Source: an uncultured Bdellovibrionales bacterium
GTDB lineage: Bacteria > Patescibacteriota > Minisyncoccia > Moranbacterales > DUUL01
Assembly: GCA_964346295.1 (NCBI GenBank)
Contig: CAYFUG010000004.1
Span: 532 to 64,531 of the forward strand
Length of the DNA stretch: 64,000 nt
Direction of reading: 5' to 3'
Part shown: positions 1,926 to 49,815 of the stretch, one piece after another
Position numbering within the stretch: position 1 is the stretch's first letter
Layout of the letters: each line of letters opens with the position of its first letter
Notes under the pieces: model-generated
Told to the model about the DNA's origin: nothing
The model's input: the letters and a program-made list of their open reading frames with translations, nothing else
Databases searched by the model: none
Position numbers and translations under genes: made by a program

Positions 1926-1997
1926 ATAAGATTCCGGATATTTTCTTTTAAAAATGAAAATTCCGGAATGACATAATTTTTTAGATGCCATTTTTCC

Positions 1998-11209: not shown

Positions 11210-11685
11210 ACAGTAGCCCCGTTCGTAACTCTCCTCTCTGCTATTTTTATAGTAGAGCAGCGACGAGTGCGTTCGGGGCCTAGCCAAAGATTTTCGTGTG
11301 GTTCAGGGAAAGGAGTTTGTCGGCAACATTCGACAGCTCCTTCCTTCTAAGCTCGGCAACTGAAAGTTTTCAGCTGGTGGTTTTAGAAGGGAATAATGTT
11401 TCCCTAGAGAGTGTATCTCTAAGATATGCTCTAGTTCTTTGACAAGTCCTATTTATACTAGACTCTAAGCTCTGGAGGTTTGATTCTCAAGCTTTTCCCA
11501 TTCCTTAATTTCCTTAAATTCCTAGCTTTACCATCACTGCCTGAGAGCGCAAATACGAATATCCGTTGAAGTAGCGGAAAGTTGTCTAAAATTTGTGCTT
11601 GCAAGTGGTGATGGTAAAAACCCTGGCCGGAATGTTTCCGGTGGGGGTTGGAAGTAATTTTTGAAAAAAGGAAAAAGGAGAAGTC

Positions 11686-12459
11686 ATGGAAAACAATTCC
11701 AAAGAGATGGCGAAGGTTGTGGCTGAGGGATTAGTCGGATTTTTGTCTGGCACTCTTATACTGTTTATTATGGCAAGGATTGCTAGTCCAGGGCCTTCAG
11801 TGTTCCTTGGAATAGCTACAAACCTCCTGTTCTTCATGGGCAGGATTAACTGGATTGGGGGGTGGGAGAAAAAAATACTTTTCATTTTCACTCCAATTAT
11901 CCTCTGGATGGCTCTTATAGGAGCCTGGGGGTTGGGATTATTTCAAATGCCCGACCCAATCAGGCCACCCGTAATCGAAGAGGGGCCGGAGGTGGAGGCC
12001 GTTGAGCTTGATGCGGAAACTTTTATTCCCCGAGTTGAGCGAGAAGAGGGGAAGTTAAGAGTTTCCCTGCATCGACTTAGGCCGTCTACAGAGAAACTCT
12101 TTTTTGCCGTTCAAGAGAACGGCTATTTCTTTCTCGAGTTTAATTTTGGGGGAGGCCGTCTTGCTAAAATAGAGCGCAGAGCCTTCGCCTCCAGCGAAAA
12201 CCCCAGGGAAAGATGGGATTACAGGCTGGAGGGAGGGGCAAGCTCTTTGCTCGAATGGCTTCAGGAAGAGAGAGTTGCTCTTGGAGACCGCGACATGGAA
12301 GATTTCGAAAAATTCATGGAGTGCTTCGGTTTCCAGGGCGAAATCGCCAGGGCGTTTTTCTTGGCCTGCCAGTTTGGAATGGACTGGCCGGAAAAATATT
12401 CACTCGAGACCCAGTTGGCTCGAGAGCTTTTCCGGGAATTAATTTCCGGGGAGCTGTAA
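11686..12459 (+). CDS. hypothetical membrane-anchored protein
   Basis: RBS AAAAGGAGAAG then ATG. Two or three N-terminal TM segments followed by a soluble domain. Intermediate GC. Confidence 0.5.
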   Translation: MENNSKEMAKVVAEGLVGFLSGTLILFIMARIASPGPSVFLGIATNLLFFMGRINWIGGWEKKILFIFTPIILWMALIGAWGLGLFQMPDPIRPPVIEEGPEVEAVELDAETFIPRVEREEGKLRVSLHRLRPSTEKLFFAVQENGYFFLEFNFGGGRLAKIERRAFASSENPRERWDYRLEGGASSLLEWLQEERVALGDRDMEDFEKFMECFGFQGEIARAFFLACQFGMDWPEKYSLETQLARELFRELISGEL

Positions 12460-12858
12460 AAATAGGACTACTAAAGAATAGGATGGGGCGCGCGTTGGAT
12501 CGTCAACCGCGCCTCCCCTATCATCCGGTGAGACCGGATCTGATGAGGTTTTCTGAATAACATTTCAGAGTCAAAGCCGAAATAGGGATTGTTTCTTTGT
12601 AATGTTTTTAGTGGTAAAAGTTAGCCTTTTGTGGGCTGTAGTGTCAAATTCAAAAACCTCTCTCCTCCTCTATTGGTTATAAATACTAGCTATTTAGTCA
12701 CTAGAGTTGAATTTGATGCTCAGCCCAAAGGAGGCTAAGTAAATAAAAAGTAAAAACATCTCTTATCCAGGGGGTGTTTTTTGATGGAAATTTTGATTAA
12801 TTGGAGTTTTTTGCTAAAATTCAAAAAAGATCTGAGAAATAAAAGGATAAAAAAAATT

Positions 12859-24118: not shown

Positions 24119-24260
24119 AACGGAGCCTTACTCATTTTGAAAATTTCGTTGTTGAAATCCGGGCTTCCCTTTCACCGTACACTTCAGTACGGCTCAAGCA
24201 AAGCCTACCTGCCTGTCGGCAGGCAGGGATTTCGCCTAGAACTCTCCTAAAATGAGAAAG
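24119..24260 (+). repeat. dispersed repeat family, B-type module
   Basis: ttgaaaatttcgttgttgaa...caccgtacacttcagtacggctc (CCGTAC/GTACGG hairpin) then ...gcctagaactctcctaaaat. Confidence 0.55.
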
Positions 24261-24377: not shown

Positions 24378-24995
24378 TTGAAGCAAGGCTTTTTAGTTAT
24401 TGCTCATAATATCCGCAGTTGCTACAATGTTGGCTCGATTTTTCGTAGTGCGGATGCTTTGGGCGTGGAAAAGATTTATTTAACCGGCTACACTCCCAGA
24501 CCGGGTGTTTTGGTTACTTCCGATGCTGAAAGTGGTCTTGATAAATTAAGCTTTAAGGTAAATTCTCATTCCGATTCAAATTTAAGTCTCGGAGAAAGAA
24601 GAGGCCCCAAAACGAGCTTTACTGAGGCGCTAAAAGCTAAAAAAGATGCCAAAAAGATTGCTAAAACGGCTTTAGGAGCAGAAGAAGTAGTTGCTTGGGA
24701 ATACCAGAGGCAATTAGGACCACTGATTCAAAAATTGCAGTCGCAAGGGGTGCAAGTGGTAGCTCTGGAGCAAGCTTCTAATAGTCTAAAATTAACTGAT
24801 TTTAAGCCCAATTTTCCTTTGGCGCTGCTAGTGGGTAACGAAGTGCGAGGAATCTCTCCTCAAATACTGAAAAAAGTGGACAAAATCGTAGAAATCCCGA
24901 TGCAAGGAAAGAAGGAGTCCTTGAATGTTGGGGTGGCATTTGGAATCGCCGGTTTTTGGCTCCAAGCTGTTGATTTTGGTAAATTTCGTTGTTGA
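24378..24995 (+). CDS. SpoU/TrmH-family RNA 2'-O-methyltransferase
   Basis: LVIAHNIRSCYNVGSIFRSADALGV motif. The C-terminus FGKFRC-stop is supplied by the dispersed repeat. Confidence 0.7.
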   Translation: MKQGFLVIAHNIRSCYNVGSIFRSADALGVEKIYLTGYTPRPGVLVTSDAESGLDKLSFKVNSHSDSNLSLGERRGPKTSFTEALKAKKDAKKIAKTALGAEEVVAWEYQRQLGPLIQKLQSQGVQVVALEQASNSLKLTDFKPNFPLALLVGNEVRGISPQILKKVDKIVEIPMQGKKESLNVGVAFGIAGFWLQAVDFGKFRC

Positions 24996-25185
24996 AGTCT
25001 CCACTTCTCGCTCACCGTAGCTTTATTACGGCTTGCTTCGATGCTCGACTTCGCCTAGAACCTTACTCAAAATCAATAGCTTGGCCTAGACTGTGGCTGC
25101 TTCAGATTAAACTCAAAATATTGTCTAAAATTTCCTCCCGCTTTTGCCAGTGCTACAGATGGGACAGATAAAACTTGAAAAACTT
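24996..25185 (+). repeat. dispersed repeat, near full-length copy (B+A modules)
   Basis: ctcaccgtagctttattacggc...gcctagaacc... then ...gccagtgctacagatgggacagataaaacttgaaa. Confidence 0.55.
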
Positions 25186-25342: not shown

Positions 25343-28009
25343 GTGGAGAGACTTGTTGTCGATAGAAGTGAAGAGAAGAGAAACGGACCGGAAAGAAATC
25401 CGGGGTTTTTTCAGTTAGCTGCTTATCCAAAAGAAGATTGGGATTTGTTAAGGGCTGTGAATAAGGTGTTGTCGAAAGATAGTAGTCGAGTTTATGGTTT
25501 GCAGAGGGCTTTATTGGATTATCCCGAACTAGGGAACGAAGAGACAAAGGAGGTAATTTTAGAAAAGATGGAAGAAGAACTTTTAAGCATTTATTCTGAT
25601 GATTTAAGACTGGAAAATGGAATAAACTCGATAAAAGATGCTTTTGAGGGAATAAGGGGGATTTATTTAGGGAAAATAGAGACAGAGAAGGTTGTGATCG
25701 AGCGAGTCAACCAGCTTTACCCAGCGGAGTTGGAAGCCTTTGAGGATTTATTGGGCGACTTTATAGTTTATAAAAAAGTTTTACCTAAAGATGTTATTCA
25801 GGCAATTTACAGAAATAGGCTAGAGAAAATTGGAAATGTAAATCTTAATAATCTTTTTAGTTATGGAGATGTAGGCTTAGAAAAAGAGTGTTTAGGGGTT
25901 AATGAAAGAATTTTTGAAGCTCTAGAGGAGCTAGCCTTGTTTTCTGATATTTCCGAAGGTCAGAAAGCGGAACTTTTTCAGTCAGTGGCAAGGGGGTTAT
26001 TTGGAAGGGAAAAAAAGTTTTTTGTAGACCCAGAAAAGGCTTTGAGATTTGTAAGAGTCACTTTTCAAAGTCCAGAGACCAAGCGCTATGCCAAGCCACT
26101 TTTCATGAATTATTGGTGGGAGTGGGAGAATGCTATTGAAAAAATGCAGTCAGAAATTGATTTTGAAGATCAGAGCAAGGAGAATATTAGGAAAATAGCA
26201 GAGTTGGCGGAAATTTACGGGGCAGTTTACGGAGAATTGATAAAGAGGGGAATCGAACCTAATAATGATGGGGCAGTTTACATGTTGAATTTTATTAACC
26301 AGGCGGGAGGAGTAGACGATTTTTACCTTAACTTAAAGGTTAAGCAAGCCGTTTTTCTTATTCAGGCTGATGCTTGCCTTTATTATGAGGAAGGCGAGGA
26401 TTGGCAAAAGGAAGGAAGGGCGCAGTTGATTTATAGTGCGGCTCAAACTTTGGGAACTGATCTGCAGCTTAGTGGCGAGGAGCTGCAGCAATTTTTAACT
26501 GATATAAAAGGTTTTTTTGGGCAAAAATTAACTGCCGAAATTGAACCTCTTGTTAAGGGGCAGGTGGCAGCTCCGGGAGTAGAAGGGCATTTTGATGATG
26601 ATTTTGATCTGGTGCTACTGGAGGAGGAGAGAGGCAATGAAGGTGATAGGCTGAAGTTTAGCGAATTTATTAAGTTGAATTACTACGATGTTATTGAAGA
26701 GGGCGATTTTCTGGATTTGATGTTTATGCAAAATTTATTCATCAAGAAGCGAATTTCCCAGGAGTTAGGCGTGGCTTTGCATAACTTAGAGTTGAGAGCT
26801 CAGAATCAGTTTTTAAACTTCATTAAAAATGCCTCCCAGGAGAGAGTGAGACAAGTGGCAGAATTCGTAAAAAATCCAGCAGAAGAAGAGCAGCGCTTAA
26901 ACCGCCTGAGAGTCTTTCTTTCCTTGGAAGAGGGCCATTTTTCAGGAGATCAGCTATTGGACTTGCCTTCCAGGATTGATGCTGACCAAGCGCAGCAAGT
27001 TTTTGACCAGTATGGGAGACTGGTTCAAGACGCTTTTTCGGAGCAGTCGACCCTTCAAGAAGTGCTAAAGAATCCGGAGGATTTGGCCAAAATTGATCAA
27101 GAAAAAATCACTCAAAATTTGCTCTTCCGAGGCCAAAAAATCCTTCAAAGGCTAATTGAGTCTAGCGAGCCAGAGAGAGAGGCAGAAAGTGTTTTATCCA
27201 GCCTTTTAGCACAAAAATGGCAAATTCAACTAGCGGGAGCAGTTTTTAGGGAAGGGATCGAGGCTGGGATGAGTTTAGATGATTTAGAGGGTGGCAGAAT
27301 TGAGGTTTTAACCGTCCAAGACTTAATTCAAAAACCAGAATTGGTGGCTAAAATGAGGGATATTTATTCTAATAATTTCTCCAAAAAACCTGATTTGCAA
27401 GGAGCGGTTTTGCAAGGATTTGATCAAAAAATGACAGAAGGAGGCGTTAATTCGGAGTTTGCTTTGGCCTTTGTGGGCGAAGAATTGGTGGCTTTTAGCC
27501 GCAGTGATCATGTAGACGAAAAAACTCGCTATTTTGCTTCTCTAAACTCTTCTTATGGCGGTGCCAAGTTTGGAGAAGCTCTGAGGAGGAAAAGAGAGGC
27601 TCAGGTGGGAGAAAATTTTGATATTCGGGCTCATAGTGAGCCAGAAAGTGCCATGAGTACGCTGTATATTGGCCCAGAGGGAGGATTTATAGCCGATGGG
27701 GTAGAATTTAATTATCACAACACCGAGGCTAATTTATTCAGTATTACTAGACAAAAAACCCCGCCCAGTTACTATGCTTGGAGTAAGCCTCGAGAAGAGC
27801 TAGTCAAAGAGGCGAAAGAACTTGCGGATAGTGAGATAAGTAGCATTTCTCTAGAAAAGGGTAAGCCTCTGGTTTTAAGCCTCCAGGGGCTAGAAAATAC
27901 ACTAGTGGCACTAAAAACCCTACTCAATGAGCAGGGCGGCCAGTTGACCAATTATTGGTTTCAGGGCGGAAGATATTTTTTAGCTATAGAAAACCCTAAA
28001 TCAAGCTAA
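25343..28009 (+). CDS. large hypothetical protein (888 aa; start uncertain)
   Basis: Long uninterrupted ORF with no recognisable motifs. Starts with GTG at 25343; the alternative ATG near 25567 follows an AAGGAGG. Confidence 0.5.
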   Translation: MERLVVDRSEEKRNGPERNPGFFQLAAYPKEDWDLLRAVNKVLSKDSSRVYGLQRALLDYPELGNEETKEVILEKMEEELLSIYSDDLRLENGINSIKDAFEGIRGIYLGKIETEKVVIERVNQLYPAELEAFEDLLGDFIVYKKVLPKDVIQAIYRNRLEKIGNVNLNNLFSYGDVGLEKECLGVNERIFEALEELALFSDISEGQKAELFQSVARGLFGREKKFFVDPEKALRFVRVTFQSPETKRYAKPLFMNYWWEWENAIEKMQSEIDFEDQSKENIRKIAELAEIYGAVYGELIKRGIEPNNDGAVYMLNFINQAGGVDDFYLNLKVKQAVFLIQADACLYYEEGEDWQKEGRAQLIYSAAQTLGTDLQLSGEELQQFLTDIKGFFGQKLTAEIEPLVKGQVAAPGVEGHFDDDFDLVLLEEERGNEGDRLKFSEFIKLNYYDVIEEGDFLDLMFMQNLFIKKRISQELGVALHNLELRAQNQFLNFIKNASQERVRQVAEFVKNPAEEEQRLNRLRVFLSLEEGHFSGDQLLDLPSRIDADQAQQVFDQYGRLVQDAFSEQSTLQEVLKNPEDLAKIDQEKITQNLLFRGQKILQRLIESSEPEREAESVLSSLLAQKWQIQLAGAVFREGIEAGMSLDDLEGGRIEVLTVQDLIQKPELVAKMRDIYSNNFSKKPDLQGAVLQGFDQKMTEGGVNSEFALAFVGEELVAFSRSDHVDEKTRYFASLNSSYGGAKFGEALRRKREAQVGENFDIRAHSEPESAMSTLYIGPEGGFIADGVEFNYHNTEANLFSITRQKTPPSYYAWSKPREELVKEAKELADSEISSISLEKGKPLVLSLQGLENTLVALKTLLNEQGGQLTNYWFQGGRYFLAIENPKSS

Positions 28010-28762
28010 TTTTCGGGAATAATCCCAGTGAAATTCGAACAGGGATTTGTGCATTTGGTAAATATTGGGATCTTGGATTAGCATAGCGATTTTGTGTTCT
28101 TCTGAAAGGGAGATGTAAATGACTTTTCCTTCGTAAATTTGCATTACAGAACCCGAGAAGGGGTATTTTTCTTGATCAATAAGCTTAATTTCTGTAATAT
28201 CTCGCAGATAATTTTGCAAGTAATTTTTGGCAAAGGCAGAGTCCAGGACCAGAACCTTTTTGTTAAGGTTAAGCTTGGATCTTTTTTTCATGTAGCACTG
28301 ATTGATTTTTTCGGTGTATTTGATAACAGCCTCCAGGTCGGCATAAGTGTAAATAATTTCTTGACTGGTGAGAGTGTCTTCCAGGGCCTCTTGAATGCCT
28401 TCTAGTCCCTCAAAATAGCGGACGTCAGGTTTCTGAGAAACTAAATTAAATTCTGATGTCAGTGCATCTAGATTGGCCGCTAGGTTTTTATGAGTTTTTT
28501 CTAGTTGGGAAGATTGATCGCGGAGTAATTCTTCTAATTGATTAGGGTGTTGAGGATAAAAATGAGTCAATTTTCCCTTTTTTTTGCTAATTACCAGGCT
28601 TTTTTCTTCTAAAGATTCTAAAACATTGTAAACCACCCCCTTTTGGAGGGTGGTTTTTTTAATGATTTCGCTGGCAGGAACTGCTCCAGAGCGAAGCAGG
28701 AATTCGTAAATAGTGGCTTCATTAGGGGTCAGTCCAACTTGAGTAAGGATGTCTTGGTACAT
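28001..28762 (-). CDS. TrmB-family HTH transcriptional regulator, divergent from GC island 2
   Basis: N-terminus ILTQVGLTPNEATIYEFLLRSGAVPASEI is typical of the TrmB HTH. Paralogous to 39074..39868 and 58052..58837. Confidence 0.7.
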   Translation of the reverse strand: MYQDILTQVGLTPNEATIYEFLLRSGAVPASEIIKKTTLQKGVVYNVLESLEEKSLVISKKKGKLTHFYPQHPNQLEELLRDQSSQLEKTHKNLAANLDALTSEFNLVSQKPDVRYFEGLEGIQEALEDTLTSQEIIYTYADLEAVIKYTEKINQCYMKKRSKLNLNKKVLVLDSAFAKNYLQNYLRDITEIKLIDQEKYPFSGSVMQIYEGKVIYISLSEEHKIAMLIQDPNIYQMHKSLFEFHWDYSRKLA

Positions 28763-28877: not shown

Positions 28878-28906
28878 TTGACAATTTTTTAATAATATGC
28901 TACAAT
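28878..28906 (+). promoter_or_regulatory. sigma70-type promoter of GC island 2
   Basis: TTGACA, 17 nt, TGcTACAAT. Embedded in the TTGACAA...TTGTCAA palindrome. AT-rich UP-like region upstream. Followed by GTCAAGCTAAGAAAAGG. Confidence 0.65.
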
Positions 28907-29108
28907 GCCTTGTCAAGCTAAGAAAAGGGTAAAACTCCGAAGCTTGAAGAACTGAAAGGTTCTAGCCAAATAAGAATAGTTGGCTCTTAGTACATTATAT
29001 CGAGAATAACCACACAACACAAACCACAGGAAAGTTTCTTGCAAGGCTTTTCTAGAGGTGTTTTTTGTGTTGTGGAAACATTCTCTAGCAAGAGCCCTGC
29101 AAAAAACT

Positions 29109-29154
29109 CTCCTATCACGGGGAGTTTTTTGTTCTTTGAAAACTCAGAAATCAG
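29109..29154 (+). promoter_or_regulatory. boxB-like hairpin plus boxA-like antiterminator
   Basis: CTCTCCtatcacGGGGAG hairpin, then gttctttgaaaactcagaaatcag. Confidence 0.55.
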
Positions 29155-29335
29155 TAAAGTGGTTTTCTCCTAGGGCTTTTGTCCTTGGTAGGCAGCTTAG
29201 TGCTTATGAAAGTTTGTAAGCGCTGAGCTGTTTATCAAGCAAGGAAAGCCCGGGCGTCCTAGTCACCGGGAAATTTTACAAAAAAATTATCCGGGCTGTA
29301 CTAGGCAGCCCATTTTTCAGAAAAGGAGAAAGACC

Positions 29336-29785: not shown

Positions 29786-30072
29786 CGGCCGTTTTTCTGT
29801 CCCCCTTCAATTTGCTTTTGGCATTTAGGAGGGGGCAGCGCTGATTTCTGAGTAAGAGGGTTCAAGGAAGGCGGATTCACATTGTGCGTCCGCCTCCTTT
29901 TCTCAAATCTCAAGTTTAATTGAGGTTTGAGATGAAGGATTGCACCTTGAAAAATTTTCCCTATTTCTCCTTTCAATTGCCTTTTTTCACTTAGTGAAAA
30001 CAAATCCAACTTCGTTGATTGAAGTGAGGCAATTGACGATTTTCAACTGAAAAAAGGGAGAGGAGAAGGGGC

Positions 30073-30526: not shown

Positions 30527-31306
30527 ATGAAACGGATTTTTGTTGTCCCTATCAACGATGGGGAGGCGGTAGAGATTAGGAATCTCCTACAGGATGGCGG
30601 TGAAGTGGTTGTGGAAAGCGTCCTCCGTTGGGGAGCCCGATGGGAGAAGCTGGAACCGGAGGTGGTGGCGGAGATCGAAAGGCTTCGCTCCCTTAATCCG
30701 GGAGTTCAGATCTACGGCGTGGAGCTGGCCGGCCCCAATCAGTGGGGGGCTCGCAACATCGACCACCACAAGTACCAGGATGAGGATCGGAGTAATTCCA
30801 AGTCCTCCCTGGAGCAAGTGGCGGAGTTGTTGGGCGTCCAGCTGACCCGGCACCAATTTTTGGTTTCGGAGAATGACAAGGGTTGGATCCCGGCGCTAAT
30901 AGCGGCCGGAGCCAGTCCCGACGAGATCGAACTGGTGCGGGCGCAGGATCGCCAGGCCCAGGGGGTTACCCCTGACGACGAAGCCCAGGCTCTTCGGGAT
31001 ATCGAGGCGGCCCAGTGGCAAGGTCGGAAGGTCTGGCTCCAGTGTCTCAAGGGGGCCACCTCGGCCCACACTGACCGGCTCTTTGGTCAGTTTGACGAAG
31101 CCCTGACGGTGGATGGGGTCAACGGAAAGTGGATCTATTTTGGTCCGCGATCCGAAGATTTCTTCGCCCTCACCGAAGGGGGCACCGAAGGGATACGCTG
31201 GAAAAGCCCTCGACCAGGGGGGTACTCCGGGGCGGAAAAGCCCCAGGAGGAGACCCAGGAAGCAATCCGGAATTTTTTTGGGAGTAATTCCCTTACCTCT
31301 TTTTAG
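30527..31306 (+). CDS. hypothetical protein, GC island 2 gene 3 (259 aa)
   Basis: RBS TAAGGAGGAG then ATG at 30527. The longer track ORF from 30119 has an R/P/W-rich N-terminal extension that overlaps gene 2 in another frame and is judged spurious. Confidence 0.55.
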   Translation: MKRIFVVPINDGEAVEIRNLLQDGGEVVVESVLRWGARWEKLEPEVVAEIERLRSLNPGVQIYGVELAGPNQWGARNIDHHKYQDEDRSNSKSSLEQVAELLGVQLTRHQFLVSENDKGWIPALIAAGASPDEIELVRAQDRQAQGVTPDDEAQALRDIEAAQWQGRKVWLQCLKGATSAHTDRLFGQFDEALTVDGVNGKWIYFGPRSEDFFALTEGGTEGIRWKSPRPGGYSGAEKPQEETQEAIRNFFGSNSLTSF

Positions 31307-31457
31307 CTAAGACGCACTAAGGAGAAGGACAAAATCAGCGTCGGGTTCAGATGGGCTGGCGAGAACCTCGTTAGCCCATCCTTTCCTAGTTCAGCACTAA
31401 AGTGGTGGTGGGCTAAGAAGGGATTAACGAAAAATCACCAAAAAAGGAGGCCCCAAA

Positions 31458-32003: not shown

Positions 32004-32104
32004 TTCTGTCTACTTTCGATTTTCGTTCATTTCCAATGGATCAGGTGTCATTGTGCATCTGATCCGGAATTCTGAGCTTAGCTCTATTAAGAGGTAGGTT
32101 CAGC

Positions 32105-32128
32105 GTTCTTTAAAAACTCAGAAATCAG
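32105..32128 (+). promoter_or_regulatory. second boxA-like motif, internal to the island 2 operon
   Basis: gttctttaaaaactcagaaatcag lies between gene 4 and gene 5, as a spacer boxA does in rrn operons. Confidence 0.5.
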
Positions 32129-32269
32129 GAAAATCCAACTTTCTATCTTTTCTCTTTGTCTTCTAAAAGTTGTTGGTTACCCGAGAGAATTTAATCTAGT
32201 TAATGAACTGAATTAGCCAGTTAAGTTTTTTTGGGCAACCAACAACCAAGGAAAGAGAAGGAGGAAGAC

Positions 32270-32518: not shown

Positions 32519-32704
32519 CCCTTACCTTAGAATTTTTTTGATTTCTAGGCCCTCTCCATCAGGCCTCCTGCGAAGTTAGCAGGTTTTAAAAATTTGGATG
32601 GTAGTCCGAGCGGCGGAAATGACTCAAAACTATCCGCAAAATTAGCCCTGACAATCAGGGCCGGCCGAGGCAAGCGCAATGCCGCTTTAGCCTAAGAGGC
32701 CACC

Positions 32705-32836
32705 AAAAGGCCCGAAAGAGTCTGGCCAACGCGCTAAATCTTTCGGAGGGACGAACTTGTTGAACACAACATTTTCGTCCCCTCTACTAGCAACTTAATT
32801 TGAGACTTGATCTTTTATTGAGTTGCTTGAGAGAAT
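32705..32836 (+). repeat. 132-bp direct repeat, copy 1
   Basis: Near-identical (2-3 mismatches) to 34004..34136. Contains a GGGACGAA-cttgttgaacacaacatt-TTCGTCCC hairpin. Confidence 0.85.
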
Positions 32837-32924: not shown

Positions 32925-33971
32925 ATGGGTAAATTTCAGGAAATCACACTGGAATTATTGTTGGAAAATGAAGTTTTGAGGAAGTATCTTCTCAAGGCAA
33001 GAATTGGTCCAGCTAAAAAAGGCGACGGTGCTTTTGTGGGGACTTATGATATTGCCCCGAAGGAGTTTCGGAGTTTTGGAATTGTTTTGCCCAGGGGCGG
33101 GATGATTATTCCAGGGGCAGATCCTGTCAAGTTAAAGGAAATGGTCAAGGAGCCTGAGCGCCGGCGTGAGGCGGAGGACTTGGCAAATCGTCGTGCTGTT
33201 GAAAAAGATTATCTCAATCAGGTGAAAGAGATAATTGCTGAAGCTGGCCTCACGGATATTGAAGTGGTGGAAGAAGACGGAGTGGACTTCCATAGTATCG
33301 GCGCCACCAGCTGGCACAAGAGCTTTTTGGTAAGAGAAGGAGAGAAAATCTTCAGTCTTCACAGCGAAGAGGAGCCGTATCGTGGCTTAGATGACGATGG
33401 TTCGTACGAGCCGTGGAGGACGGAGTTTACTCCGTTGGAAGAGGTGAAATCCTTCCTTGAAGAGGAGGCGCGTCTTGTTGGTCCGAGAAAAATGTTTGCT
33501 GATCGGATCAGGCGGCTTATTGATATAAGCCACAATGTTGGTCAGCAAGGGCCAGATGAAACTGGCTGGGATCGCCCTCGAGTGGAATTATTTTTGTACG
33601 ATGACTATAAAAAAGGCAGGGACTGGGGTTTTTTCGGTCATCGTTGTCAGGGTATCTCTTCGGCCCACAGGATTTACTATCGAAAAAAACTCTATGAGAT
33701 TACCGAAGAAGGCATTTCTCGCCTTGAGTATGAAATCGGAGAAAGGGAGGAGGCGCTAGAAGCAAGACGAGCGATGCTCAAAAGACTCTTCGAAGAGAAG
33801 GGCAGAGTTTTTGAGGAACTCAAAGAAGAGAAAGATTGCTATGCCGGAAAGTCACTGGCAACCGGCAAGGCAAAGTACGATGAGTGGACTGAAACGCGCT
33901 ACTTTCTCGGCGACACAGAAGTTACCGAGGAAGAGCGTGATTGGCTGAAGGGCTTACCTAAGGATAATTAG
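32925..33971 (+). CDS. hypothetical protein (348 aa) bracketed by the 132-bp direct repeats
   Basis: RBS AAAAGGGGGA then ATG at 32925. Charged soluble protein with no recognisable motifs. Confidence 0.55.
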   Translation: MGKFQEITLELLLENEVLRKYLLKARIGPAKKGDGAFVGTYDIAPKEFRSFGIVLPRGGMIIPGADPVKLKEMVKEPERRREAEDLANRRAVEKDYLNQVKEIIAEAGLTDIEVVEEDGVDFHSIGATSWHKSFLVREGEKIFSLHSEEEPYRGLDDDGSYEPWRTEFTPLEEVKSFLEEEARLVGPRKMFADRIRRLIDISHNVGQQGPDETGWDRPRVELFLYDDYKKGRDWGFFGHRCQGISSAHRIYYRKKLYEITEEGISRLEYEIGEREEALEARRAMLKRLFEEKGRVFEELKEEKDCYAGKSLATGKAKYDEWTETRYFLGDTEVTEEERDWLKGLPKDN

Positions 33972-34003
33972 TGGATAAGGCCCTCAAGACTCTTCAAATT
34001 TTC

Positions 34004-34136
34004 AAAAGGCCCGAAAGAGCCTGGCCAACGCGCCAAATCTTTCGGAGGGACGAACTTGTTGAACACAACATTTTCGTCCCCTCTACTAGCAACTTAATTT
34101 GAGACTTGATCTTTTATTGAGTTGCTTGAGAGAATT
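34004..34136 (+). repeat. 132-bp direct repeat, copy 2
   Basis: See copy 1. Confidence 0.85.
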
Positions 34137-34169: not shown

Positions 34170-34205
34170 AAAAAAGCGCCGGTATTAGTCCCGGCGCTTT
34201 TTTAT
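34170..34205. terminator. bidirectional rho-independent terminator
   Basis: AAAAAA-GCGCCGG-tattagtc-CCGGCGC-TTTTTT. Confidence 0.75.
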
Positions 34206-34317
34206 TCTACTGCTTTTAGCTATTCAATTCCCCTAATCCCTCCTCCTTTGCTAAAGCTATGGTCGGCAGGCTTTTGTAAGGGGGTTGCTGAGCAGGGAAA
34301 GGCTAAGATCTCTTGAC

Positions 34318-34372
34318 TTCCTCCTTCGTCAAAACTTCGGAGGACAAGACGCTCGGGATGACAAAGAAAAAA
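34318..34372. repeat. dispersed repeat, A-type module copy
   Basis: tccttcgtcaaaacttcggaggacaagacgctcgggatgacaaag. Confidence 0.5.
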
Positions 34373-40882: not shown

Positions 40883-42125
40883 AAAGCCTAAGATATTGGT
40901 GGCGCTGAGCGGAGGGGTAGACTCGGCGGTGGCGGCCCTGCTTCTTCTGGAGCAGGGTTTTGAGGTGCAAGGGATTCATTTTTTGCTGAGTAGCGAGAAA
41001 TTGATTAGCGCAGAAAAAGTTCGGTTGATTGCTAATGAATTGGGGGTCGAGCTAGAAGTAAGAGATATTTCTCGGGAGTTTCAAAAAGAGGTGGTGGATA
41101 GTTTTGCTAAAACTTATCAAAAAGGAGCGACGCCTAACCCTTGCGTGATTTGCAACCGGAAGGTAAAATTTAAGCAGTTACTCCAGGCTCGCGAGGAGCT
41201 AGGCTGTGATCTAGTAGCCACCGGACATTACGCACGGATTGCTGCTGGTGAGGGCTCCCTGAAGGCGATCTCCACTCAATCCTCTCAATCTCTCCATCTT
41301 CGCCAGGACTACAGTCGACAGGCTCTACAAAAGGGGGAGACTGAGGGTTTTTTTCTTCAAAAGGCCAAGGATCAGCGCAAGGATCAGTCCTATTTTCTCT
41401 ATCGATTAACCCAGGAGCAGTTGCAATTTTGTCGCTTTCCCTTGGGGGAGCACTTCAAAGATTGGGTCAAGCAGCGGGCTAAAGATTTAAATTTAGGCCT
41501 AGAAAGGCAAGGAGAGTCCCAAGACATTTGTTTTTTTGAGCCAGAGGAAAGCCTGCGAGATTTTCTTGGAAGGCGCTCTAAACAAAACTTTACAGAAGCT
41601 TCAATAATTTCGGACAAAGGTGAGCCTTTGGGGAAATGCGAGGGTTTGGAGTTGTTCACGATTGGCCAGCGCAAGGGCCTAAATCTCAGTGGGGGGCCTT
41701 GGTATGTTTTGAATAGAGATTTCACCAAGCGGCAGCTGGTAGTCACTCGCGATTCGGAAAGCCCGGATTTTTGGCAAAAGGGAATTTTTATCGAGCAAGT
41801 CAACTGGATTAATCAATCTCCTCAGCCGGGAAAATGGTACGACTTGCAAATTCGTTATCAAGGAAAAGTTTATCAAGGGATGCTTGAGAAATTAAAAGAG
41901 GGGCTTCGAGGGCAGGGCGGGGGATATTCCGTCCCCACTCCTACGGGGGTTGCTCAATCCCCCCAGCCCCTCCTCCTTCGCCAGGACTACAGTCGACAGG
42001 CTTTACGAAAGGGGGAGCCTAGCTGGAAGGTTAGCTTGAAGGAGGCGGCCCGGGCGGTAGCAGCGGGGCAATCGTTGGTGGTGTATGAGGGTAGTCAAGT
42101 TTTAGGGGGAGGAATCATCTTCTAG
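40848..42125 (+). CDS. mnmA: tRNA-specific 2-thiouridylase MnmA with two in-frame repeat-derived insertions
   Basis: PP-loop LVALSGGVDSAVAA, NPCVICN, GHYARIA...KDQSYFLYRL, C-terminal SLVVYEGSQVLGGGIIF. About 60 extra residues arrive in two blocks that share the peptide LRQDYSRQAL. Confidence 0.85.
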   Translation: MTLAIMPKNPIKKPKILVALSGGVDSAVAALLLLEQGFEVQGIHFLLSSEKLISAEKVRLIANELGVELEVRDISREFQKEVVDSFAKTYQKGATPNPCVICNRKVKFKQLLQAREELGCDLVATGHYARIAAGEGSLKAISTQSSQSLHLRQDYSRQALQKGETEGFFLQKAKDQRKDQSYFLYRLTQEQLQFCRFPLGEHFKDWVKQRAKDLNLGLERQGESQDICFFEPEESLRDFLGRRSKQNFTEASIISDKGEPLGKCEGLELFTIGQRKGLNLSGGPWYVLNRDFTKRQLVVTRDSESPDFWQKGIFIEQVNWINQSPQPGKWYDLQIRYQGKVYQGMLEKLKEGLRGQGGGYSVPTPTGVAQSPQPLLLRQDYSRQALRKGEPSWKVSLKEAARAVAAGQSLVVYEGSQVLGGGIIF

Positions 42126-42261: not shown

Positions 42262-42330
42262 ATAAGATCCCTCGACTCCCTCCTTCGCCAAGGCTACGGC
42301 GGGCAAGGCGCTCGGGATGACAAACTAAGA
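42262..42330. repeat. dispersed repeat, A-type module copy
   Basis: ctccctccttcgccaaggctacggcgggcaaggcgctcgggatgacaaa. Confidence 0.55.
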
Positions 42331-42370
42331 ATTTTAGAAGCTATACTTTATTGGCAATACCAATTTTTTT

Positions 42371-43021: not shown

Positions 43022-44218
43022 TTGACTTCAAAGAAAAAAAAACAGACCAGTTTTTTAGGGGACAAGAAGGTGGCTTTAGTCCACGATTTTTTGTTATACT
43101 GGGGGGGAGCGGAGGCCACTTTGCAAGTGTTGGCCAAAATGTTTCCTCAGGCGCCGATTTACACCCTGCTTCAGGATGAGCAGTTTACCAAAAAGCACTT
43201 CAGGGGGCGAGAAATCCGGACCTCGTTTTTACAGAAAATTCCCCGCTGGATCCGCAAAAAACACACTCGCTTATTGCCGCTAATGCCAACCGCCATTGAG
43301 TCGCTCAATTTGCGGGATTATGACTTGGTAATTTCCTCCTCTTCGGCTTTTGCCAAGGGAATTGTGGTGAAGCCTAAGACCACCCATGTTTGCTACATGC
43401 ACGCCCCTATGCGTTATGTCTGGGACTACTATCACCAGTATTTTCAAGAGCGCTTTGGCAATCGAGCTAAAATTTTTACCCGGACTTTTCTCAACTACTT
43501 GCGAACTTGGGATCGAGCCAGTGCCGACCGGGCTGATCATCTGGTTGCCAATTCTCGTTACACTGCTCGGCGAATCGAAAAATATTATCGTAGAGAATCC
43601 ATGGTGATTTATCCCCCAGTGGAGGTGGAAAAATTCGCCCTCAGTCCGGACAAGGCAAATTCCAGTATTTCTTCTAGCTCTGATTTGATAGAGAAGCAAA
43701 ATCAGGCCAGGAGAGGTAGCTATTTTTTGACAACGGGGCGCTTAGCGACTTATAAGCGGGTAGATCTTTTGATTGAGGCTTTTCAGAAGCTCAAGTTGCC
43801 GCTAGTGATAGTGGGTGATGGCCCGGAGCGTAAAAAGCTAGAGAAATTAGCCCAAGGGAACAGCAAGATAAAAATTTTAGGCTGGCAAAGTGAGGAAAAA
43901 TTAATTCGACTTTATCAAAATTCCCGGGCCTTTGTTTGTGCCACCGAAGATGATTTCAATATCACTTGCGTGGAGGCAATGGCAGCCGGAACGCCGGTAA
44001 TTGCCTTAAAAAAGGGCGGCGTGCAGGAAACAGTAATCGAAGGTCAGACGGGAATATTTTTCCAGGAGGCACGGTTGGAGCTAGTGGTGGATGGAGTGCG
44101 GCGGTTTATTGAAAAAGAGGCTGATTTTGACTCGGAGGTGATTCAGGCTCGAGCGAGGGAGTTTTCGAGGGAGAGATTTGAGAAGGAGATGCGAAAGTAC
44201 TTGACTTCCATTTTTTGA
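43022..44218 (+). CDS. glycosyltransferase family 4 (RfaG-like)
   Basis: EAMAAGTPVIALKKGGVQETVIEGQTGIFF GT4 signature. Confidence 0.8.
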   Translation: MTSKKKKQTSFLGDKKVALVHDFLLYWGGAEATLQVLAKMFPQAPIYTLLQDEQFTKKHFRGREIRTSFLQKIPRWIRKKHTRLLPLMPTAIESLNLRDYDLVISSSSAFAKGIVVKPKTTHVCYMHAPMRYVWDYYHQYFQERFGNRAKIFTRTFLNYLRTWDRASADRADHLVANSRYTARRIEKYYRRESMVIYPPVEVEKFALSPDKANSSISSSSDLIEKQNQARRGSYFLTTGRLATYKRVDLLIEAFQKLKLPLVIVGDGPERKKLEKLAQGNSKIKILGWQSEEKLIRLYQNSRAFVCATEDDFNITCVEAMAAGTPVIALKKGGVQETVIEGQTGIFFQEARLELVVDGVRRFIEKEADFDSEVIQARAREFSRERFEKEMRKYLTSIF

Positions 44219-44325
44219 AAATTTTGGTGTCAAAATCTCCGCTACTCCCTCACCGTAACTCTCAGTACGCCTCGCTCGCTGCTCGATTTCTCCTAAAAAT
44301 TTCCTAAAAAATGAAAGTCCTTAAA
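44219..44325 (+). repeat. dispersed repeat, B-type module
   Basis: ttttgaaaattttggtgtcaaaatctcc...ctcaccgtaactctcagtacgcctcgctcg...tcctaaaaatttcctaaaaaatg. Confidence 0.55.
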
Positions 44326-47017: not shown

Positions 47018-47100
47018 TGATAAAATTTCCAGGAAAAACAATCAGTGGAGTGATATAAATTCCTTGATTTTTTATCAGTGGAGTGATAAAATTTCCAGGT
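47018..47100 (+). repeat. interleaved short direct repeats upstream of the ATPase gene
   Basis: tgataaaatttccagg occurs twice (47018, 47084). atcagtggagtgata occurs twice (47041, 47074). Confidence 0.7.
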
Positions 47101-47102
47101 AA

Positions 47103-48377
47103 ATGATTAATTCTAGAAAAATGATTTCAAGAGAAATTTATCCTAAGCTTTATAGTTGGGCGAAAAAGGGCAAGATTATTATTTTGAAGGGACCTCGTCA
47201 GGCGGGGAAAACGACCCTGATGAATTTTTTATTAGACAATCTTAAAAAAGAAGGTCAAAATACCGCTTATTTGTTGGCAGATGACATTGATAAGCAAGAG
47301 TTGTTTAAGTCTCCAGCCGCTCTGGAATTTTACTTGAGTCAGAAGTATAATTTTCCCGAAAAACATCTTTTTCTTTTTATTGATGAGTTTCAATACATTG
47401 ATCAGGCGGGACTCTTCATTAAAAACTTTTTTGATAAGCATCAGGGCCAGGTAAATTTAATTTTAAGTGGGTCTAGTTCCCTGGAAATCACTCAAAATCA
47501 AGAGTTTTTGACCGGTCGGGCGGTGGAGTTTGAAATGGGAACTGTTAATTTTCGAGAGTTTTTTAATTTTCGAGAAGGAACTCGGATTAAAAAATTTCCC
47601 CTTGAAAGCCAGGATGATTTAAGTAATTTTTATAAATCCTTTGAGAGTAAGCTAAGCCTCGCCTTAAAGAATTTTTTAGTTTTTGGGGGGTATCCTGAGG
47701 TGGTGGAAACCTCATTAGAGGAAGATAAGAAAGTAATTTTAAAGTCGATTGTTAAGAAATATTTAGAAAAGGATGTGGCGGGTTTTTTGCAAATCGAAAA
47801 TATCACTGCCTTTAACAACTTAACGAAGATTTTGGCTTCTCAAATTGGTAATTTAGTTAATATTAGCGAACTGGCTAATACGGTAAACTTATCCATTAAC
47901 ACCGTTAAAAGATATCTGGATGTTTTGCAAGGGACATATGTCTTTAGTCTGGTGCGACCATATGCTAAGAACATTCGCAAGGAGCTAAGCAAAATGCCTA
48001 AAGTTTATATTCAAGACTTGGGGGCAAAAAATTATCTTTTAGGTGATTACAAAGACAATTTATTTGGTGGCAAGGAAGTGGAAAATTTTGTTTTTTTAGG
48101 GATGGCTAATAATTTAAGTTCAGAAGGAGTTAACTTCTATCGAACCAAGGGAGGCTCAGAGGTCGATTTTATTTTAGAAAAAGAGGGTGGCTTGAATTTG
48201 ATAGAAGTTAAATATCGGTCGGTTTCCAAGATCAAAGAGCCTCTGGCATTCGCCAATTTTTCGGAAAATTATGGAGACAGAGTTCAAAACAAGATTGTGA
48301 TTTCCAAAGATGTTTTAAAAAAAGATGGGAATATTTACTTTATTCCGGCGGTGCTTTGGCCCTGGATAGAGTTATAG
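47103..48377 (+). CDS. AAA+ ATPase with C-terminal DUF4143-like domain
   Basis: Walker A GPRQAGKT, Walker B FIDEFQ. Confidence 0.7.
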   Translation: MINSRKMISREIYPKLYSWAKKGKIIILKGPRQAGKTTLMNFLLDNLKKEGQNTAYLLADDIDKQELFKSPAALEFYLSQKYNFPEKHLFLFIDEFQYIDQAGLFIKNFFDKHQGQVNLILSGSSSLEITQNQEFLTGRAVEFEMGTVNFREFFNFREGTRIKKFPLESQDDLSNFYKSFESKLSLALKNFLVFGGYPEVVETSLEEDKKVILKSIVKKYLEKDVAGFLQIENITAFNNLTKILASQIGNLVNISELANTVNLSINTVKRYLDVLQGTYVFSLVRPYAKNIRKELSKMPKVYIQDLGAKNYLLGDYKDNLFGGKEVENFVFLGMANNLSSEGVNFYRTKGGSEVDFILEKEGGLNLIEVKYRSVSKIKEPLAFANFSENYGDRVQNKIVISKDVLKKDGNIYFIPAVLWPWIEL

Positions 48378-48419: not shown

Positions 48420-49652
48420 ATGAAACAAACTAAAATTATTACCGAAAAGTGGGAGCAGGTGAGTCCAAGATTTATCTCTAGCTACCAAAAGACAGGAGGT
48501 TATCAGGATTTGGCTAAAGCCTTAAAAATGGGTCCGGATCAGGTACTTCAAGAGGTGTTAGCGTCTGGTCTGGCCGGTCGGGGCGGGGGCGGATTTCCTA
48601 CCGGAAAAAAGTGGCAAACGGCTTTAGAACAAAAAGCTTCGGAAAACTACTTTATCTGCAATTTGGATGAATCGGAGCCAGGGACTTACAAAGATCGCTA
48701 TTTAGCGGAAAGTAGTCCTCACCAGCTTTTAGAGGGCATTATGATTGCTTCTTTTGCCCTCAAGGTGAAGAAGGCTTACATTTACCTCAATGGAAATTTT
48801 CACGCCGCTCGGCAGTTGCTGCAAAACGCCCTTCAACAAGCCCAGGAAGCCGGATTTTTAGGAGAGAATATCTTGGAGAGCGGTTTTGATTTAGAAATCG
48901 AACTATTCGTGGGGGCGGGGGCCTATATTTGCGGAGAGGAATCAGCTTTGATTAATTCTATTGAGGGTAAAAGAGGGGAGCCACGGCGCCGGCCTCCTTT
49001 TGCTTGTGTTTGCGGACTGCATAATCGCCCTACGGTTGTGAACAACGCCGAAACTATTGCCAACTTGCCTTGGATAATCCAGAATGGCGGCAAGGCTTAT
49101 TCCCGGGTTGGCCTGCCAGATCAGCCGGGTACTAAACTTTTTTCCATCGGGGGAATGGTGCGTAACCCTGGTTTGTACGAGTTTCCTTTGGGCGTCAGTG
49201 TGCGAGAATTGGTTTACAAAGCGGGAATGGGCATGCGGCCAGGATTGGATTTTTGGTTTGCTCAAGTGGGGGGATCAGCCGGTCGCCTGGTAACGCGCAA
49301 TTTATTGGATGAAATTCCTAGTTATTCTCGCAAGGCTCGGATTTCGGTAGGATCGGGGGCGGTGCTGGTGGTAGATAAAAACCAGGACATCAAGGAACTT
49401 TTACTAGCTTGGAGCCGGTTTTTTGCTCGGGAGTCTTGCGGGCAGTGTGTTCCGTGTCGAGAGGGGACTTTCCGTTTGCAGCAGCTTGTAGAGCGCTTGG
49501 GGGGAGAAAATTTCAGTCAAGATGATTGGGAGGACATGCAGCGCATTATTTTCACTCTGGAGCGGAGTACTTTTTGCGCTTTAGGGAAGTTTGCAGCGGT
49601 GGCGATTAAGGATGCGCTGGAGCTGAAGTTGGTGGAGGCTTCCAAATTTTGA
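48420..49652 (+). CDS. NuoF-like NADH-binding FMN/Fe-S flavoprotein (complex I 51-kDa / HoxF-like)
   Basis: GLAGRGGGGFPTGKKW FMN motif. ESCGQCVPCREGT 4Fe-4S motif. The C-terminus EASKF-stop is supplied by the repeat. Confidence 0.8.
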   Translation: MKQTKIITEKWEQVSPRFISSYQKTGGYQDLAKALKMGPDQVLQEVLASGLAGRGGGGFPTGKKWQTALEQKASENYFICNLDESEPGTYKDRYLAESSPHQLLEGIMIASFALKVKKAYIYLNGNFHAARQLLQNALQQAQEAGFLGENILESGFDLEIELFVGAGAYICGEESALINSIEGKRGEPRRRPPFACVCGLHNRPTVVNNAETIANLPWIIQNGGKAYSRVGLPDQPGTKLFSIGGMVRNPGLYEFPLGVSVRELVYKAGMGMRPGLDFWFAQVGGSAGRLVTRNLLDEIPSYSRKARISVGSGAVLVVDKNQDIKELLLAWSRFFARESCGQCVPCREGTFRLQQLVERLGGENFSQDDWEDMQRIIFTLERSTFCALGKFAAVAIKDALELKLVEASKF

Positions 49653-49745
49653 AAATTTTGGTGTTGCAAGCTGCGTTTGGCACTCACCGTACCCTTCAGT
49701 ACGGCTCGCACCAAGCCTCGCTTGCGCCTAAAAATTTCCTAAAAT
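49653..49745 (+). repeat. dispersed repeat, B-type module
   Basis: ttgaaaattttggtgttgcaagctgcgtttggcactcaccgtacccttcagtacggctcgcaccaagcctcgcttgcgcctaaaaatttcctaaaa. Confidence 0.6.
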
Positions 49746-49815
49746 TTGGAAGCCTTAATCCAGCGGTTATTTTTAGTGGGAGATTTTTACAAGTTAACTT
49801 TTAAAATTTATTAAA

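Follow-up and report, generated by a model that had tools for sequence, protein, structure and literature searches.

A predicted twin-hairpin RNA element downstream of GC-rich genes in a ribosomal RNA operon-like scaffold of an uncultured candidate phyla radiation bacterium

The 3′ flanks of islands 2 and 3

We analysed a 64,000-nucleotide (nt) stretch of contig CAYFUG010000004.1 (GenBank assembly GCA_964346295.1, positions 532 to 64,531, forward strand) from an uncultured bacterium of the candidate phyla radiation (CPR); the whole stretch is referred to here as the window. It is chromosomal, with gyrA, ispG, secDF, mnmA, mreC/D, a penicillin-binding protein gene and the RNase P RNA, and it contains GC-rich islands (0.51–0.57 GC inside, ~0.35–0.45 outside). 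Third-codon-position GC is 0.59–0.76 in island 2 genes g1–g5 and in the genes of islands 1 and 3, 0.48 in g6, and 0.39–0.50 in the host genes. The subject of this report is the segment that follows g4 of island 2 and the gene of island 3, where an earlier note had described a GGATCAGG hairpin and, directly 3′ of it, an identical 17-mer, TCCGGAATTCTGAGCTT. The quoted flank sequences are present as written, and the 17-mer does directly follow the hairpin at both loci (32063 and 60599).

The two exact copies of the 17-mer (32063–32079 and 60599–60615) are the only ones in the window, and no third match is found there with up to two mismatches (expected 0.05; two copies in 0 of 100 shuffles). With just two copies, 28 kb apart, a clustered regularly interspaced short palindromic repeat (CRISPR) is ruled out. 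The GGATCAGG arm upstream of the 17-mer has the same letters in both islands, and the similarity of the flanks reaches past the stretch first described: the 17-mer together with a downstream arm, ARGTTSAGMRTTC, makes a second, longer hairpin, and in island 2 the ARGTTSAGMRTTC-type arm continues into a boxA-like sequence, GTTCTTTAAAAAC, at 32105. This second hairpin, the boxA-like elements and the leader-trailer complementarity described below had not been remarked upon.

The earlier note had proposed a search for the 17-mer elsewhere. It does occur in unrelated contexts, in 53 metagenome contigs and one viral contig (coding), none of which has the upstream hairpin or a boxA; the metagenome contig collection does not include the source contig. 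We estimate that these matches are about the chance number for collections of such size, and they are therefore neither relatives nor evidence against the finding. The viral contigs also had no match to a pattern of boxA plus leader strand or to one of promoter plus leader.

Structure and covariation of the twin hairpin

As judged from predicted folds, the 3′ flank is an RNA element of two abutting hairpins, H1 then H2, on the sense transcript, with the 17-mer providing the final 3 nt of H1 and the 5′ arm of H2. The components in islands 2 and 3, and the diverged counterparts elsewhere in the window, are as follows.

32038–32065, plus strand: H1 of the island 2 g4 flank, arms GGAUCAGGUGU and GCAUCUGAUCC (minimum free energy and centroid structures)
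32063–32079, plus strand: 17-mer, copy 1 (sequence match)
32066–32109, plus strand: H2 of island 2, 18 bp, abutting H1, its 3′ arm overlapping the start of the next boxA (fold)
60572–60602, plus strand: H1 of island 3, with two G-U pairs in the conserved stem (fold)
60599–60615, plus strand: 17-mer, copy 2 (sequence match)
60603–60655, plus strand: H2 of island 3, 24 bp, with an apical sequence unlike that of island 2 (fold)
60673–60707, plus strand: terminator-like hairpin with T6 at the end of the island 3 unit (read from sequence, fold)
11310–11390, plus strand: island 1 twin hairpin, H1 11310–11342 and H2 11343–11390, with TTCTAAGCT in the H2 5′ arm (fold)
29868–29938, plus strand: twin hairpin after g1 (fold)
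31350–31421, plus strand: twin hairpin after g3 (fold)

Both close copies fold far better than expected on the plus strand. H1 and H2 together reach −39.5 kcal/mol in island 2 (z-score −8.4; minus strand −20.4) and −53.2 kcal/mol in island 3 (z-score −9.45; minus strand −28.2), and, since several of the pairs are G-U, folding of the minus strands is only about half as good. One example is the 3′ arm of H1: island 2 has CTGATCC there and island 3 has CTTGGTCC, which requires two G-U pairs and hence folds well only as plus-strand RNA. Between the two islands the 5′ arms are identical, and the differences in the 3′ arms mostly keep pairing and are mostly G-U compatible. The apical parts of H1 and H2 differ in sequence, and the helix still forms.

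Five loci share this architecture: the two flanks of islands 2 and 3, and the diverged twin hairpins after the island 1 gene, g1 and g3, where H1 touches H2 and H2 opens with a UUCUNAG-like start. An RNAalifold consensus of the five paralogous copies has 14 pairs in H1, nine of them with a compensatory change. The basal stem of H2, taken from four copies in a hand-set register, also has 14 pairs (92.6% of cells paired; 5/14 compensatory), and its covariation score exceeds all 500 shuffles, with registers slid by 1–3 columns pairing in no more than 55% of cells; MAFFT and RNAalifold applied to all five H2 sequences misaligned the g1 copy and returned no structure. Covariation among paralogues is to be taken as supporting evidence rather than proof.

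The element corresponds to no described family that we could find. Within the window only the RNase P RNA passes the Rfam 15 gathering threshold, nothing relevant is reported on either flank at E-values up to 10, and a search for tRNA and tmRNA genes found none. An intrinsic terminator is excluded as an identity for H2, which lacks a U run, is followed by UUUAAAAAC in island 2 and UUGAGUGAU in island 3, and is missing from the list given by a terminator scan.

Promoters, boxA-like sites and leader-trailer helices

The shared 5′ promoter and leader that the earlier note described are real (TATGCTACAATGNNNNGTCAAGCT has three matches against 0.00 expected; repeat families D1 and D12), and the GC-rich genes do lie between conserved 5′ and 3′ boundaries. 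The promoter has the form TTGACA-17-TGCTACAAT followed by GTCAAGCTMAGAAAAGG and occurs at 9128, 28878 and 59120, with an additional upstream promoter at 9046 in island 1 (tandem P1/P2); transcription starts are predicted from promoter geometry. Further along the leaders there is a boxA-like 13-mer, GTTCTTTGAAAAC, which is exact at 29131 and 59262, has one mismatch at 9960 and 32105, and is present as a close variant at 11434; GTTCTTTGAAAACTYAGAAATCAG is found at 29131, 32105 and 59262. A hairpin directly precedes each of the five boxA-like sites.

28878–28928, plus strand: island 2 promoter TTGACA-17-TGCTACAAT and conserved first 17 nt of the transcript, GTCAAGCTAAGAAAAGG (28912–28928)
29101–29155, plus strand: island 2 leader with hairpin, boxA (29131–29143) and leader strand E1 (29142–29155)
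32105–32117, plus strand: internal boxA-like element GTTCTTTAAAAAC, family D12
59120–59170, plus strand: island 3 promoter and conserved first 17 nt of the transcript, GTCAAGCTCAGAAAAGG (59154–59170)
59262–59288, plus strand: island 3 boxA (59262–59274) and leader strand E (59275–59288)
9960–9990, plus strand: island 1 leader with boxA (9960–9972) and leader strand (9977–9990)

The 13-mer GTTCTTTGAAAAC agrees with the boxA of Gram-positive and Mollicutes ribosomal RNA (rRNA) leaders and spacers. It is also the start of a standard Mollicutes primer for the polymerase chain reaction, which anneals in the 16S–23S spacer. BoxA is the loading site of the Nus antitermination factors; no nus genes and no rnc were seen in the window.

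At all five boxA sites (5/5) the 10–15 nt right after boxA are complementary to the stop-codon region of the next gene, either at the stop codon or within 55 nt after it. Significance was assessed by shuffling the trailer window 2000 times and counting the shuffles that reach the observed score.

Leader strand 9977–9990 with trailer 11204–11217, which overlaps the island 1 stop codon: 14 bp, 2/2000 shuffles
Leader strand 11445–11454 with trailer 12460–12469: 9/2000 shuffles
Leader strand E1, 29142–29155, with trailer 29840–29853, 55 nt after the g1 stop: 14 bp, 0/2000 shuffles
Leader strand E2, 32120–32134, with trailer 32532–32546, 14 nt after the g5 stop codon: 15 bp, 1/2000 shuffles
Leader strand E, 59275–59288, with trailer TAACTGATTTCTAG, 60548–60561, which overlaps the island 3 stop codon: 14 bp, 0/2000 shuffles

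The g1 trailer contains an exact 12-nt reverse complement of E1 inside its 14-bp pairing. Leader strands vary between loci and the trailers vary accordingly. When leaders and trailers are combined across loci, low scores result for both pairs of island 1 with any other locus, and the island 2 and island 3 pairs cross-match, their E sequences being related; there is one clear compensatory change between islands 2 and 3, a C-to-U in the leader matched by a G-to-A in the trailer. The helices are also predicted by cofolding, in which their formation gains −11 to −22 kcal/mol. In unanchored windows a score of 12.5 is reached by 4/5 island genes vs 3/29 host genes. RNAduplex on whole leader and trailer regions allows giant loops and was uninformative, and gapless and windowed tests took its place. 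The leader-trailer helices around these protein genes are predicted structures, and well supported ones.

The order of elements along the RNA is gene, trailer strand and twin hairpin, and then, where another gene follows, hairpin-boxA-leader strand, gene and trailer strand. We regard it as well supported that the flank is a real structured RNA element within an rRNA-operon-like scaffold for GC-rich genes.

Several further features of the leaders may be mentioned. The hairpin at 29101–29130 in the island 2 leader is a perfect, terminator-like A6-stem-U6 structure that ends exactly at the start of boxA, and could be an attenuator or a boxB equivalent. An inverted repeat brackets each cassette promoter (28878–28919, 59120–59161 and 9128–9169), one arm being TTGACA(A), at −35, and the other T(T)GTCAA, where the transcript is predicted to start. 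In combination with the divergent genes for TrmB-type regulators (28001–28762 and 58052–58837) it could constitute an operator. Among the host genes, three consecutive ones (YdjC-like, ZIP transporter and SNF2 helicase; 1281–5273) have 12.5–14-point complementarity between their upstream 300 nt and their stop regions, for which leader-trailer pairing and shared terminator hairpins are both possible causes.

A proposed function, and hammerhead ribozymes in the equivalent position

With moderate confidence, we propose that the twin hairpin is double-stranded punctuation in the rRNA-operon-like scaffold, serving in RNA processing or end protection. The scaffold would comprise a consensus promoter, a structured leader, the hairpin-boxA unit and a leader strand that pairs with the stop-codon region of the cargo, so that a leader-trailer helix would loop out each cargo in the manner of 16S and 23S rRNA. 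The twin hairpin would stand 3′ of the trailer strand, and before the next boxA where another gene comes. An enzyme of the RNase III type would cut it, or it would block exonucleases; in either case the 3′ boundary of the cargo mRNA would be fixed and protected, and the cargo uncoupled from whatever is downstream. RNase III requires about two helical turns, and H2, at 18 bp in island 2 and 24 bp in island 3 with single mismatches, is of the length of such a substrate, about two turns of double-stranded RNA. The perfect conservation of the 17-mer would be best accounted for by double duty, through local pairing in H2 and through complementarity to the 5′ end of the transcript. The analysis shows the sequences, their predicted folds, the strand asymmetry, the covariation, the complementarities and the foreign cargo; transcription starts, Nus binding, antitermination, cleavage and the pairing that forms in the cell are what we infer here.

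Part of the appeal of this proposal comes from what occupies the same slot elsewhere. In a CPR contig with a g4 homologue (L061) the spacer after that gene has a type III hammerhead at 3189–3243 (RF00008, 40.2 bits, E-value 4e-8), which is below the gathering score of 48.5, and in a second such contig (L057) there is a candidate hammerhead core after the g4 homologue at ~8700–8775, read by eye only. The window itself has a further candidate:

12516–12587, plus strand: candidate type III hammerhead with a long stem II and a complete core (read by eye)

This lies between genes 11686–12459 and 12781–15192, right after trailer strand 12460–12469, in the slot that the twin hairpin has elsewhere. 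Its core reads CCCUAU-C, then AUCCGGU..ACCGGAU-CUGAUGA-stem II-GAA-AUAGGG, and it is unreported by Rfam even at E-values up to 1. A pattern scan for the hammerhead core (CUGAUGA ... GAAA, with three stems) finds none in either of the island 2 and 3 flanks, which have CUGAUCC instead. The twin hairpin sits in the hammerhead-equivalent slot without a catalytic core, which suggests cutting or blocking by a protein nuclease. Of the three origins offered in the earlier note (common origin, recombination site and RNA-processing site) it is the last that fits best, given the strand-specific fold, the compensatory and G-U changes, and the hammerheads in the equivalent slot.

The cargo of island 3

59421–60554, plus strand: island 3 open reading frame of 377 amino acids, composed of the host ATG and a few codons, an N-terminal fragment of csx30 (59434–60537) fused to them in frame, and four host codons with the stop

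The 1.1-kb fragment at 59434–60537 has DNA identity of 92%, 86% and 82% to three contigs of 55–56% GC (L001, L002 and L003, respectively). The protein matches the NCBIfam Csx30 model NF041234 with 154.5 bits (cut-off 125) over model positions 2–347 of 560, and PDB 8eey_E Csx30 with an E-value of 2.7e-7. In the donor contigs a full-length Csx30 of 572–576 amino acids has as neighbours Csx29 (TPR-CHAT), Csx31, Cas7-11e and an RpoE-like sigma factor. Donors L001 and L002 carry cas genes; the window has none. These comparisons give good support to a foreign origin for what island 3 carries.

The junctions show how the fragment is seated. The 5′ junction lies in an A/T run, with the host Shine-Dalgarno sequence, the ATG and a few A/T-rich codons preceding the homology; at the other end the csx30 homology stops 17 nt before the host-supplied stop, which belongs to the trailer strand. 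The fragment therefore sits exactly between the start-codon region and the trailer helix, with the RNA scaffold intact. An assembly chimera is ruled out: the 5′ junction is spanned by independent assemblies from other samples that are 100% identical, and the fragment differs from its nearest donor by 8%. The best reading is that island 3 is a one-cistron paralogue of the island 2 unit whose interior was replaced once by illegitimate recombination while selection kept the scaffold. Against the nearest donor dS is 0.16 and dN/dS 0.35, which is compatible with recent transfer and some constraint, and is not decisive. The nearest donor contig comes from a Joint Genome Institute sample numbered next to the source sample, which suggests that both are from the same study. 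A look-up through the TrmB neighbour for strain variation at island 3 gave only 100% identical contigs from other samples. We note that each of four independent same-strain assemblies (L069–L072) has its break inside, or immediately before, the csx30 fragment or the leader (59354–59967), where reads of the 92%-identical donor gene or of the repeated leader may confuse assemblers.

The part of Csx30 that was captured covers donor residues ~9–376 of 576, and the linker and C-terminal domain are absent. Craspase cuts the characterised Csx30 orthologues at residues 407–434, and the linker and C-terminal domain are required for its recognition and cleavage; the N-terminal fragment is conserved and toxic, binds RpoE and is anti-sigma-like (bioRxiv 10.1101/2022.08.17.504292; PMC11106740). 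In comparison with the Csx30 that type III-E CRISPR-Cas loci encode, the island 3 protein aligns with the conserved N-terminal domain above the NCBIfam cut-off, but it differs in having no cas genes nearby, a CPR host, and a host-supplied start codon and promoter.

Islands 1 and 2

Island 2 has a different history. The earlier note had likened the GC-rich cargos to cassettes. Foreign cargo is what island 3 has, in its csx30 fragment of 92% DNA identity; the island 2 genes g2, g3 and g4 are conserved in other CPR genomes at 36–65% amino-acid identity. There are ~38 full-length homologues of g4 (56–65% identity) on CPR-type contigs, and its relatives in species-representative genomes are in Candidatus Saccharibacteria and Moranbacteria metagenome-assembled genomes, from which the host is taken to be a CPR bacterium. 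These comparisons indicate that island 2 is an older resident, not a recent cassette. A gene for a TrmB-type regulator lies divergently upstream of both islands 2 and 3, the two proteins being 36% identical, and the homologous operon in L057 has the same divergent arrangement; its g2 and g3 homologues are fused in one gene (9408–10694).

30527–31306, plus strand: g3, NrN-like DHH protein (PADLOC DHH_CorA, E-value 3e-31; PDB 9lq9 NrN, E-value 1.4e-17)

From these matches g3 would encode an NrN-type DHH phosphodiesterase such as is associated with type III CRISPR-CorA systems, with no cas genes nearby. NrN degrades the type III signal molecule SAM-AMP. The island 1 protein has no annotation in Pfam, NCBIfam, PADLOC, PHROGs or PDB sequence searches and is a member of a family whose function is unknown and which has about 159 representative sequences.

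Downstream of g5 in island 2, two 133-nt direct repeats that are 98% identical (32704–32836 and 34003–34135) flank g6 (348 amino acids, 32925–33971). After the first comes a boxA-like GTTCTTTGAAATA at 32853, and after the second a strong bidirectional terminator at ~34170–34200; these repeats may represent a different sort of cassette boundary, or a structured RNA.

Alternative explanations

The strongest competitor is one in which the 17-mer pairs mainly not within H2 but with the first 17–20 nt of the transcript (GUCAAGCUMAGAAAAGG), forming an outer leader-trailer helix that would hold the cargo block in a panhandle and hide the 5′ end, with H2 as a competing or storage form. The complementarity is evident: in islands 1, 2 and 3 the 17-mer region matches the first ~20 nt of its own transcript, with gapped duplexes of −16.7, −13.6 and −21.8 kcal/mol that are equalled in 0, 31 and 0 of 1000 shuffles respectively, and in island 3 there are 11 perfect pairs. 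Each of the three 3′ flanks has TTCTNAGCT on its plus strand, and each of the three predicted transcript starts has the complement, AGCTNAGAA. At the level of sequence the conserved 5′ and 3′ boundaries appear as mirror images of each other, and the 17-mer would have two mutually exclusive partners, the H2 3′ arm and the transcript 5′ end. Serving two partners would account for 5′ arms that are perfectly conserved beside variable 3′ arms in H1 and H2, and the same genome clearly uses long-range leader-trailer pairing beside boxA. However, contiguous pairing is significant in island 3 only, and a central mismatch, A-A or A-G, at which there is no covariation interrupts the duplexes of islands 1 and 2; local H2 is 5–10 kcal/mol more stable, cofolding retains H1 and H2 and H2 outcompetes the 5′-end pairing, and the transcription start is only predicted. 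Because H2 is more stable and two of the three duplexes have the central mismatch, the long-range pairing is a secondary possibility, and as the principal role of the 17-mer it is unlikely.

A slightly less probable explanation is that the flank is a relic of common descent, with island 3 a collapsed paralogue of island 2 with a foreign interior, and a flank that was inherited or gene-converted and has no function of its own. The two loci do have in common the divergent TrmB-type gene and the promoter and boxA blocks, and their first codons are alike (MKKNF and MKKIF); the boxA-like sequence after the island 3 twin hairpin is decayed, with the terminator next; and no other genome with the flank was found. 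Against descent alone, conservation is patchy, with identical blocks of 8 and 17 nt set between diverged stretches that keep pairing. We estimate from the alignment that 17/17 identities against a background of roughly 60–65% would be unlikely without constraint. The TrmB paralogues, at 36% identity, are old, so neutral intergenic DNA should no longer align, and three more places have the twin-hairpin architecture, with compensatory changes.

We also consider it doubtful, and somewhat more so, that the flank is an RNA of an unrecognised type, either a new self-cleaving motif or a specific protein-binding site such as that of a regulator or a boxB-type antitermination partner. This would be in keeping with the hammerheads that occupy the same kind of position in the relatives and in the window, with the conservation of the 5′ arms beyond the needs of pairing, and with the ending of island 2 H2 inside boxA, like the boxB-boxA sites of rRNA operons. 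Yet there is no Rfam match to a ribozyme or other family at E-values up to 10 and no hammerhead core in the flank, which is nearly all helix and lacks the conserved internal loops and junctions usual for active sites; moreover, the island 1 boxA is preceded by another hairpin, not H2, so H2 is not a general boxB equivalent.

That the hairpin and 17-mer form a DNA-level cassette boundary, an attC-like site or terminal inverted repeat for cargo exchange, is highly improbable: the element is structured and at the 3′ end of a variable, GC-rich, partly foreign cargo, the 5′ block and 17-mer make an 11-bp inverted repeat around island 3, and cargo replacement is precise relative to the flanks, but the recombination site that the earlier note had offered finds no integrase, transposase or recombinase family in the window open reading frames scanned or in the Pfam lists for 48–64 kb, no GTTRRRY / RYYYAAC attC-type core sites (GTTCAGC and GTTGAGA do not fit GTTRRRY), no array (each cassette has its own promoter and leader, at 9 kb, 29 kb and 59 kb), and no second genome with the same flanks or with swapped cargo, while the pairing depends on G-U with the minus strand and DNA folding poorly, the similarity of the copies runs on past the supposed ends, and the 5′ junction resembles one-off illegitimate recombination in an A/T run.

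The double-stranded punctuation that we prefer has to be set against several observations that weigh on the other side. There are just two close copies, the other three being diverged paralogues in the same genome, and the covariation comes from 4–5 sequences. A covariance model built from the two copies matches only those copies in the window and relatives, and the flank sequence is not conserved after the g4 homologues of other CPR genomes, where the region is structured and not alignable. Simple leader-trailer complementarity is not significant in the CPR relatives with g4 homologues, and three host genes have leader-trailer complementarity of similar length. H2, at −19 to −31 kcal/mol, is more stable than the 5′-end duplex, and the long-range pairing of the 17-mer may never form. 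The island 3 element is followed by a degenerate boxA and a terminator, and part of it could be a relic of a longer operon. Finally, transcription starts, antitermination and cleavage are all deduced from sequence.

Other repeats in the window

Three further kinds of repeat are present. An intergenic family (TTTTGAAAATTT..CTCACCGTAC..TCAGTACGGCTC..CCTAAAA) is found at gene ends across the host part of the window and is unrelated to the cassette flanks; the TTTTGAAAATTT-type repeats are at 24122–24260, 24975–25079, 44200–44317, 49634–49752 and 58870–58962. Tandem repeats of 33 nt (7573–7638 and 47018–47128) lie just upstream of two of the three AAA_14/DUF4143 ATPase genes (7623–8957 and 47103–48377). 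GC-rich intergenic repeats of ~68 nt, D4 (6079–6147, 34304–34372 and 42263–42331) and D6 (34223–34290, 41275–41342 and 41953–42020), are near gene ends, partly inside or beside mnmA and gyrA.

Comparison with known systems

Integron attC cassettes share with these units a structured, strand-asymmetric 3′ element, a variable and partly foreign cargo and a resident promoter. They differ in that here no integrase was found, there are no R/L core sites and no array, each unit has its own promoter and leader, and the G-U-dependent pairing points to RNA over single-stranded DNA. The type III hammerheads (RF00008) have the same slot after a trailer strand or g4 homologue (L061, L057 and 12516–12587), and cutting a polycistronic RNA between cistrons would be the same consequence; the flank, unlike them, has no CUGAUGA...GAAA core and matches no ribozyme model, and any cut must therefore come from a protein. 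A closer likeness in form is with the early region of phage T7, in which intercistronic RNase III hairpins of about two turns are nearly perfect with single mismatches, and upstream messages keep a stable 3′ stem. Both have long near-perfect hairpins between cistrons, whereas here there are two abutting hairpins with long-range complements in the leader, and cleavage is putative.

A broader interpretation, speculative and unlikely to be correct in full, is that CPR (Saccharibacteria-like) bacteria have a modular platform derived from the rRNA operon, with boxA antitermination, leader-trailer helices and twin-hairpin or hammerhead punctuation as its parts. It would shield foreign GC-rich genes from Rho and RNases and drive orphan type III CRISPR ancillary genes (the Csx30 N-terminal domain and the NrN-type enzyme) from neighbours or hosts as counter-defence or host manipulation; the biological role of the Csx30 fragment is one that we infer. 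The preferred, narrower reading would, if confirmed, record that a CRISPR type III-E gene fragment passed very recently into a CPR bacterium, and would supply concrete, testable signals for RNA processing in a phylum where experimental RNA biology is almost absent. The transfer prompts one to ask whether episymbionts make use of parts of the immune systems of their neighbours.

The units most resemble rRNA operons, for which both boxA and leader-trailer helices are textbook features. Such operons have boxB-boxA-boxC antitermination sites, and RNase III-processed leader-trailer helices flank 16S and 23S with the leader strand next to boxA (PMC10250234). Shared features are the strong promoter, with tandem P1/P2 at island 1, the hairpin directly before a Gram-positive/Mollicutes-type boxA, a post-boxA strand in the boxC position that pairs just after the cargo, and a second boxA in the spacer before the next unit. 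This likeness is drawn against the rRNA operons of other bacteria, and Nus binding and RNase III cleavage are putative here. The differences are that the looped-out cargo is protein-coding mRNA with its own Shine-Dalgarno sequence, GC-rich and partly foreign, and that the twin hairpin is without a described counterpart. In a reduced CPR genome, an rRNA-operon layout appears to enclose genes for proteins, some of them horizontally acquired. If so, the design of rRNA maturation and antitermination could serve again as a general chassis on which long, structured or foreign transcripts are expressed.

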